A stretch of DNA of 64,000 bases. Origin: Spizellomyces punctatus DAOM BR117. Its lineage: Eukaryota. The stretch is from assembly GCA_000182565.2 (NCBI GenBank), contig KQ257456.1; one strand, written 5' to 3'. The translations under genes were made by a program, and so were the position numbers. Positions within the stretch are counted from its first letter, which is position 1. Every line of letters begins with the position of its first letter. Positions 31,160 to 31,499 of the stretch are shown here, piece by piece. The notes under the pieces were generated by a model. That model was not told the DNA's origin and ran no database searches. It saw nothing but the letters and a program-made list of their open reading frames with translations.

Positions 31160-31499
31160 CTAACCGGATAATTGCCCACCACCACACACGGTCCCTACTA
31201 GGCCTTGATCCGGAACTCTTGATCGACATTGAAGCCAGAGTCGTCGCAAGAGAGTAATATCGTCAGGGAGACTCGCAAGCCGGAGGATGTTCAGTAACGA
31301 AGGCTTGGAGACTAGAACTGCATGTCAGAAGATGACCAGATGATAAGAAATGATGCCATCGGTACATACCAACCAAGCTCAACAAATGTGGCAGCATAAT
31401 AGTAGGTTTGTCAACAGATCCAACTGGTTGCTGCTGGTTCTGGCCGTTGTTGCTGTCGGGCGGACGAGGTCCTCGACACCACCACATCTGCATGCTCAT
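31160..31499 (-). CDS. Spliced small ORF (93 aa) inside ghost 1, with WCRGPRPPD motif
   Basis: ATG at 31499; intron 31369-31312 (GTATGT..CTGAC..CTAG); TAG at 31162-31160; TATA box upstream. Confidence 0.45.

Follow-up and report, generated by a model that had tools for sequence, protein, structure and literature searches.

WCRGPRPPD, a conserved candidate leader peptide within the mini-gene anatomy of two ghost Spu-1 elements of Spizellomyces punctatus

Ghost Spu-1 elements have been described as guide-RNA-only relatives of a Fanzor1 transposon, with 134 loci in the genome of Spizellomyces punctatus (Saito 2023, PMC10432273). According to the main text of that study, the elements end in two 30-nt inverted repeats resembling those that flank the Fanzor1 gene, with CA before the 5′ repeat, and their interior of about 550 nt is conserved and lacks a Fanzor ORF (PMC10432273). 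The omega-RNA of a ghost consists of a 75-nt scaffold that lies across the 3′ repeat, followed by a guide of 14 to 15 nt in the flanking DNA, and the repeats and the omega-RNA regions are stated to be the best-conserved parts of the elements (PMC10432273). The SPu-1 Fanzor1 transposon, as described by Bao and Jurka (2013, PMC3627910), is about 2.1 kb long, has terminal inverted repeats with TA at both ends and contains one intron-less ORF of 633 amino acids.

We analysed a 64-kb window of the genome of S. punctatus (the window being the whole stretch of DNA under study), in which two stretches, here called ghost 1 and ghost 2, had been read as ghost omega-RNA elements in a first-pass annotation. 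This reading was borne out by 30-nt inverted repeats, CA/CATA at the element end, a conserved interior of about 550 nt and a predicted 3′ scaffold. Because these features come together with ORFs whose protein relatives are confined to S. punctatus, we identify both stretches, from their sequence, as ghost Spu-1 elements. Ghost 1 lies on the minus strand and is 782 bp long; ghost 2 lies on the plus strand (approximately 50708 to 51417) and measures about 710 bp. The two interiors are 83% identical over 425 nt. The inverted-repeat pattern of ghost 1 gave only two matches in the 64-kb window (31035 to 31064 and 31787 to 31816) and none in 100 shuffles. At the left end of ghost 1 (31787 to 31818), CA (31818 to 31817) stands directly before the 5′ repeat (31816 to 31787), as in the published description of ghost Spu-1, with CATA across the junction. 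Ghost 1 shares with the published elements the 30-nt repeats, the CA, the interior and the lack of a Fanzor gene (PMC10432273), its 3′ scaffold being predicted at the corresponding place, and it has TA at both ends, like SPu-1. Unlike SPu-1 (PMC3627910), the ghosts are short and their ORF is spliced. Ghost 2 reads GATAT where ghost 1 has CATA and thus has no CA at this point, and both of its inverted repeats are degraded. In ghost 1, a subterminal repeat of 9 to 10 nt, GATTAATCCG, lies close to the inner end of the left inverted repeat and is present in 2.3 copies (31754 to 31775); it could be a transposase-binding repeat.

Protein searches covering 5.8 billion clustered proteins and 1.84 billion representatives retrieved solely uncharacterised proteins of S. 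punctatus DAOM BR117 as relatives of the ghost ORFs. The ORF of ghost 1 gave one match among one candidate, that of ghost 2 one match among six candidates, and a profile of four sequences two matches among 270 candidates. HMMER returned three matches from the 1.84 billion representatives; P0002 and P0003, which were among the HMMER matches, were rejected as spurious, being low-complexity repeat proteins. No homologue from outside S. punctatus was found among these 1.84 billion representatives. Similarly, no Pfam family exceeded the cut-off for the ghost ORFs, with sub-threshold rows only, and the comparison with solved structures, run up to E = 10, returned two rows at chance level (E = 0.53 and 1.9) and no credible relative. 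These sequence comparisons gave no sign that the ghost ORF is the N-terminus of Fanzor. Metagenome scans with two conserved ghost stretches chosen independently of the motif described below yielded 0 matches each.

Across the whole 64-kb window, tRNA was the sole match to Rfam, and ARAGORN placed a tRNA-Ser(GCT) gene at 32377 to 32460. Also present in the window are an AreA-type GATA factor, UvdE, an ABC transporter and short introns of the canonical type. A short dispersed repeat was seen at 32583 to 32700, 33365 to 33446, 41203 to 41258 (inverted) and 57871 to 57933, the copies being 75 to 98% alike; of these, two are situated a short distance downstream of the tRNA-Ser(GCT) gene and one inside the reading frames of the ABC transporter. 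This repeat may be a small mobile element or the solo end of one. Two further repeated regions were a cluster of direct repeats at 16946 to 17498 (spacing of 111 to 117 nt and 212 nt, 85 to 90% alike, G+C-richer at 0.53) and two 88-nt direct repeats within 33654 to 33960, 219 nt apart and 82% alike.

Both ghosts are laid out as small genes. Each has a TATA box, an ATG-free leader, an ORF beginning at the first AUG (93 codons in ghost 1, 91 codons in ghost 2), an intron (58 and 66 nt, respectively) and, on the 3′ side, a predicted omega-RNA scaffold. In ghost 1, where all features are on the minus strand, the TATA box TATAAAAG (31649 to 31656) is located 157 nt upstream of the ATG, with no ATG in between. 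Its leader contains a 23-nt tandem repeat detected by TRF (31516 to 31594; 3.4 copies, 94% matches), which adds about 60 nt and introduces no ATG. The repeat is private to ghost 1: ghost 2 lacks it, and contigs from other copies skip 109 to 113 nt at this place. The start codon (31499 to 31497) is followed by four variable codons, a Trp codon and the sequence encoding WCRGPRPPD (31481 to 31455), so that this segment spans 31455 to 31499. The coding part of exon 1 comprises 130 nt (31370 to 31499), the spliceosomal intron 58 nt (31312 to 31369; GTATGT ... CTGAC ... TAG), and the exon 2 part of the ORF extends over 31160 to 31311, with a TAG stop at 31162 to 31160. From the published layout, the predicted fold and the inverted-repeat match, the omega-RNA (31020 to 31109) would consist of the 75-nt scaffold at 31109 to 31035, which includes the right-end inverted repeat (31064 to 31035), and a 15-nt guide at 31034 to 31020.

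The anatomy of ghost 2, on the plus strand, is the same. The TATA box TATATAAA (50857 to 50864) is 97 nt upstream of the ATG, again with no intervening ATG. The start codon (50956), four variable codons and WCRGPRPPD (50971 to 50997) occupy 50956 to 50997; exon 1 contributes 125 coding nt, and the 66-nt intron (51081 to 51146) has the same splice signals as that of ghost 1. The exon 2 part of the spliced 91-codon ORF covers 51147 to 51297, ending in TAG (51295 to 51297), and the region of the omega-RNA scaffold is 51343 to 51417. In both ghosts the ATG is the first AUG of the leader and stands in the context ATCATGAG, with A at position −3. The TAG stop precedes the scaffold by 50 nt in ghost 1 and by 45 nt in ghost 2. 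Two stems were predicted in the last 90 nt of each element, with z-scores of only −1.20 and −1.66, and ghost 2 retains the predicted two-stem fold despite its divergence. As an observation apart, the omega-RNA region of ghost 2 (51343 to 51417, compared with 31035 to 31109) is about 74% like that of ghost 1 over the last 53 nt, whereas the stretch of exon 2 just upstream of it is 96% identical between the two ghosts, the reverse of the order of conservation given in the main text of PMC10432273.

Removal of the intron was seen in public sequencing runs; contigs of four runs were aligned to ghost 1 at 80% likeness (179, 253, 285 and 4 pieces). In run X11, contig 10 (127 nt, 0 other letters) passes directly from 31311 to 31370, leaving out exactly the 58 nt of the intron. 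The ends of the skipped segment read CT..AC on the plus strand, which is GT..AG on the minus strand. Moreover, five contigs of run X8 diverge from ghost 1 at 31370, and their onward letters, once reverse-complemented, correspond to the start of exon 2 of ghost 2 at 25 of 26 positions (compared by eye). Runs X1 and X2 carry the unspliced form, with contig 2 of X1 spanning the border of exon 2 and the intron with 0 other letters. If X11 and X8, whose kind is not on record, are DNA runs, the joined sequence would instead come from DNA copies that lack the intron; the label 'DNA?' assigned to X8 by the tool is a guess. Run X8 had zero cover in the intron bin 31340 to 31369, a gap that is only a hint of RNA-like behaviour. 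In agreement with the contig junction, three NCBI gene models (P0001, P0004 and P0005) join their exons at the same point, between ..LVELG and CLQ...

We compared the lengths of the ORFs with those expected by chance. When the sequence downstream of the motif was dinucleotide-shuffled 5000 times, 93 codons were reached in 86 shuffles and 91 codons in 156; the two window copies had not been picked for having ORFs. Both ORFs are open though about 40% of their length is read in different frames in ghost 1 and ghost 2. In each ghost the used frame is free of stops, and the other two frames carry 2 and 5 to 6 stops. Since the used frame alone is stop-free and such lengths are rarely reached in shuffles, we infer selection that keeps an ORF open across the exon junction and places its stop a short way upstream of the omega-RNA. 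An open ORF of this kind would shield an mRNA-like precursor from nonsense-mediated decay. Beyond about residue 28, no conserved protein is encoded. The frame shifts at about codon 17 in ghost 2 and at about codon 29 in P0001, P0004 and P0005, and, among five copies, exon 2 follows at least four frame paths, which end at four different stop codons. Because exon 2 is read in different frames across copies, the N-terminus alone behaves as coding. Furthermore, ghost 1 and ghost 2 show few or no differences in GAACCAGCAGCAACCA, TCTGGCTTCAATG and the final 30 nt of exon 1, despite reading these blocks in different frames. As these frame-discordant blocks are equally conserved, conservation by itself is no proof of coding.

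Re-reading of both ghosts confirmed that they encode WCRGPRPPD with four silent and zero replacement differences, as had been noted before. Ghost 1 reads TGG TGT CGA GGA CCT CGT CCG CCC GAC (31481 to 31455, minus strand) and ghost 2 reads TGG TGC CGA GGA CCT CGC CCT CCC GAT (50971 to 50997, plus strand); the differences TGT/TGC, CGT/CGC, CCG/CCT and GAC/GAT all fall on third positions and are all silent. In both ghosts the motif shares the frame of the first AUG in the transcript and, as the first-pass annotation had it, follows the ATG closely, its initial Trp being codon 7 of the ORF in ghost 1 and codon 6 in ghost 2 (M-x4/5-WCRGPRPPD). The parting of the frames after PPD, also claimed there, was located to a 1-base indel four codons downstream.

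The statistical weight that had been placed on these two copies, however, proved weak. The alignment of ghost 1 with ghost 2 comprises 391 ungapped columns with 65 differences (83% identity). Of 147 windows of 27 nt, two had at least four differences that were all in one phase, and both of these overlap the motif; yet when the difference positions were shuffled 1000 times, 199 shuffles contained such a single-phase window, and the pattern is not significant after scanning. If the phase were additionally required to be the one fixed by the ATG, this chance figure would fall by about a third. Within the motif, 21 of the 81 possible single-base changes are synonymous. This gives P = 0.0045 for four of four silent changes and P = 0.0012 for five of five, values that are uncorrected for the post hoc choice of the window, the latter also treating five inferred motif events as independent.

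Further copies extended the comparison. The annotated S. punctatus proteins P0001 (80 aa), P0004 (105 aa) and P0005 (144 aa) all contain WCRGPRPPD, and the motif is identical in five of five readable N-termini (ghost 1, ghost 2, P0001, P0004 and P0005), a count in which all copies share descent and are not independent and in which the three gene models, found partly through motif words, are biased towards intact motifs and ORFs. Residues 2 to 5, on the other side of the comparison, differ in every copy (SMQM, RVLL, RTLM, RTPM and RIQM), and they still differ among P0001, P0004 and P0005 (TL, TP, IQ), which are close relatives. Contig fragments of further copies begin MRILL-WC and MRMPL-WC. The gene model of P0005 (SPPG_09407) places its start upstream of the TATA box, at an ATG that shares the frame of the ghost ORF; this upstream start is probably an annotation artefact.

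The variants in the sequencing runs showed the same distribution. Among the 40 variants listed (at least 5% share), to which 25 further rows could add replacements in the motif, the sites inside the motif were 31461 (CCG to CCT) and 31464 (CGT to CGC and CGA), all of them silent, and 31464 has three states, each encoding Arg. Codons 2 to 4 and 17 to 30 carried mostly replacements, with two silent changes, among the variants listed: S2R, M3T and Q4P in the former, and N to S, G to D, Q to L, V to I, G to R, V to D and D to N in the latter. When read antisense, the same motif changes would fall on first positions, and each of them except CGG to AGG would alter the amino acid; antisense ORFs of 51 and 59 aa were rejected for lack of conservation across the motif. 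Six contigs of X8 and one of X11 agree with ghost 1 through the motif and diverge at 31446, three codons past it, which implies that at least one more set of copies shares the motif but not the sequence downstream. The proposal that constraint ends at PPD therefore agrees with ghost 2 and with this set of contigs, but not with four of the five copies, which share one frame and have similar residues as far as about residue 28. The earlier proposal of constraint on the peptide itself was supported in part: the motif is invariant in five of five copies, the adjoining residues take replacements and the motif variants listed are synonymous, while the two-copy statistic contributes little. Together, these comparisons make it fairly probable, in our judgement, that WCRGPRPPD is under peptide-level selection of some kind.

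As to what would be selected, we tentatively favour the possibility that WCRGPRPPD acts in cis, as a nascent peptide, and makes the first ribosome pause on an mRNA-like precursor of the omega-RNA. According to this model, each ghost would be a small Pol II-type, mRNA-like precursor of its own omega-RNA, laid out like a Fanzor mRNA in which the nuclease ORF has been swapped for a filler ORF. WCRGPRPPD would be the sole part of that ORF kept constant at the amino-acid level, a composite of the slow-to-translate elements WW, GP and RPPD on which the first ribosome may pause about 15 codons in. The pause could set the level of translation of the precursor and, through it, its stability, or it could direct cleavage upstream of the omega-RNA. 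What we observed directly is the anatomy, the removal of the intron, a motif that is invariant beside freely varying residues, silent-only variation among the listed motif variants and ORFs longer than chance. Translation of the ORF, selection on the peptide rather than the bases, pausing and a link to omega-RNA output are steps that we infer from these observations.

The composition of the motif is in line with slow translation. WW (in four of five copies), GP, RPP and PPD all occur within nine residues right after the start. That diproline motifs can stall ribosomes had already been pointed out in the first-pass annotation, and PPD is indeed a documented pause tripeptide dependent on eIF5A/EF-P, listed in PMC5499558 among those with strong ribosome pausing when EF-P or eIF5A is absent. 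In yeast, as reported in PMC11229359, ribosome occupancy is raised at PD/PPD, and reporters with PD, PG, WW or WR repeats have lower mRNA levels in a Hel2-dependent manner, these being eightfold dipeptide repeats and not single motifs. Because PPD is a known pause tripeptide, ribosome arrest at the motif is plausible by analogy. A literature search found no ribosome profiling of S. punctatus. Against a pause, it can be argued that a permanent stall at codon 15 would leave no reason for the ORF to stay open for 75 codons more. In addition, the 75-nt ghost scaffold by itself works with SpuFz1 in human cells (Saito 2023, PMC10432273), so that the ORF is dispensable for guide function as such. The further-reaching idea that the ghosts are not non-coding at all, and that a pause on nascent WCRGPRPPD, acting through collision-triggered cleavage or the sensing of eIF5A or polyamine status, decides how much of the 3′ part becomes Fanzor guide RNA, seems to us improbable; it would represent a eukaryote-specific, translation-coupled biogenesis of guide RNA.

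Alternatively, the 27 nt could be conserved as bases, either as a protein-binding site at the palindrome CGAGGACCTCG or as an RNA element, with the third-base pattern due to luck. We consider this possible but rather doubtful. Several blocks of the ghosts are conserved at the base level and cannot be conserved as codons given their different frames, and the perfect 11-nt palindrome CGAGGACCTCG, which includes three fourfold-degenerate third positions, shows no variant among those listed. The two-copy phase pattern, found as it was in 199 of 1000 shuffles, would be compatible with luck, and the identity of the motif between ghost 1 and ghost 2 (23/27, 85%) is no higher than the 83% average. On the other hand, all four variable sites lie in the phase set by the first AUG, the site with three states encodes Arg in each of them, and the residues on both flanks vary freely. 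The distance from the TATA box to the motif differs by 60 nt between the ghosts, which fits a positioned promoter element poorly. Nor did we find a shared local RNA fold: at the motif the z-scores were +0.61 and −0.97 with different structures, and local RNA structure was rejected as a candidate on these grounds. A longer fold gave z = −2.69 in ghost 1, dominated by its private tandem repeat, and z = −0.64 in ghost 2.

Another explanation is that the motif is a relic without a present role, in which case the interior would derive from a once-coding gene or a captured exon pair and the family would be young. The course of exon 2 along at least four frame paths to four stops among five copies does have the look of a decaying ORF. 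The close relatedness of three of the five copies (P0001, P0004 and P0005) and the lack of a homologue outside S. punctatus among the 1.84 billion representatives would also suit a young family. However, codons 2 to 5 show repeated changes, even within the three closest copies, whereas the motif has stayed the same, five of five inferred motif changes are silent (P = 0.0012, uncorrected), and both window ORFs are longer than expected by chance though read partly in different frames. We thus regard a relic as unlikely. Still less probable is a small protein or peptide that would act in trans through WCRGPRPPD on a binding partner such as Fanzor or a host factor, with its tail as an unconstrained spacer: such a product would account for the peptide-level conservation as well as a cis-acting one and for an ORF that is open to 80 to 105 codons in every copy (144 in the P0005 gene model, with its upstream start), but a functional protein with its tail in copy-dependent frames is hard to envisage, and the ORF has no Pfam family above the cut-off, no solved relative and no homologue outside S. 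punctatus.

We know of no established account of the route from Pol II transcripts to the guide RNAs of eukaryotic Fanzors. If the ghosts are mini-mRNAs that undergo splicing and carry an ORF with a selected leader, the biology of guide RNAs would come to include translation, splicing and mRNA surveillance, and the ghosts would provide a compact nascent-peptide regulator outside the usual setting of a uORF before a main ORF. If instead the motif turns out to be a relic or to be conserved as bases, the layout as a mini-gene remains a useful annotation of a well-known element, the scaffolds of which are already in use for the engineering of genome editors.

Arrest peptides and peptides encoded by uORFs are exemplified by the fungal arginine attenuator peptide, the upstream conserved coding region of AZIN1, which ends in PPW, and uORF2 of cytomegalovirus gp48. 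The conserved-peptide uORFs and arrest peptides likewise have a short first ORF, a peptide that is conserved where the bases are not, a proline-rich stall site and free downstream sequence. They regulate a downstream protein-coding ORF, whereas the ghost ORF is followed by no main protein-coding ORF, only by the omega-RNA scaffold and the end of the element, and it continues for about 75 codons across an intron. Plant miPEPs are peptides encoded by the primary transcripts of small RNAs and are reported to act in trans on their own transcription. They too are encoded by a short 5′-proximal ORF on a Pol II precursor, with the small RNA elsewhere in the transcript. The content of WCRGPRPPD overlaps with the diprolyl pause motifs of eIF5A/EF-P (PPD, PPG, PPW, DPP and others) in PMC5499558 and with PD, PG, WW and WR in PMC11229359; as presented in these sources, such motifs are general slow-downs in ordinary proteins or eightfold repeats. 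As regards the elements themselves, neither the main text of Saito 2023, PMC3627910 as cited above nor the 2026 engineering paper (PMC13434818), in the portions accessible, mentions an ORF, intron or peptide in ghosts. The main-text description of ghost Spu-1 has no promoter, ORF, intron or conserved peptide, the word 'intron' occurring 0 times (PMC10432273), all of which are present here. The elements were known already; what appears to be new is their mini-gene anatomy together with the conserved leader peptide.
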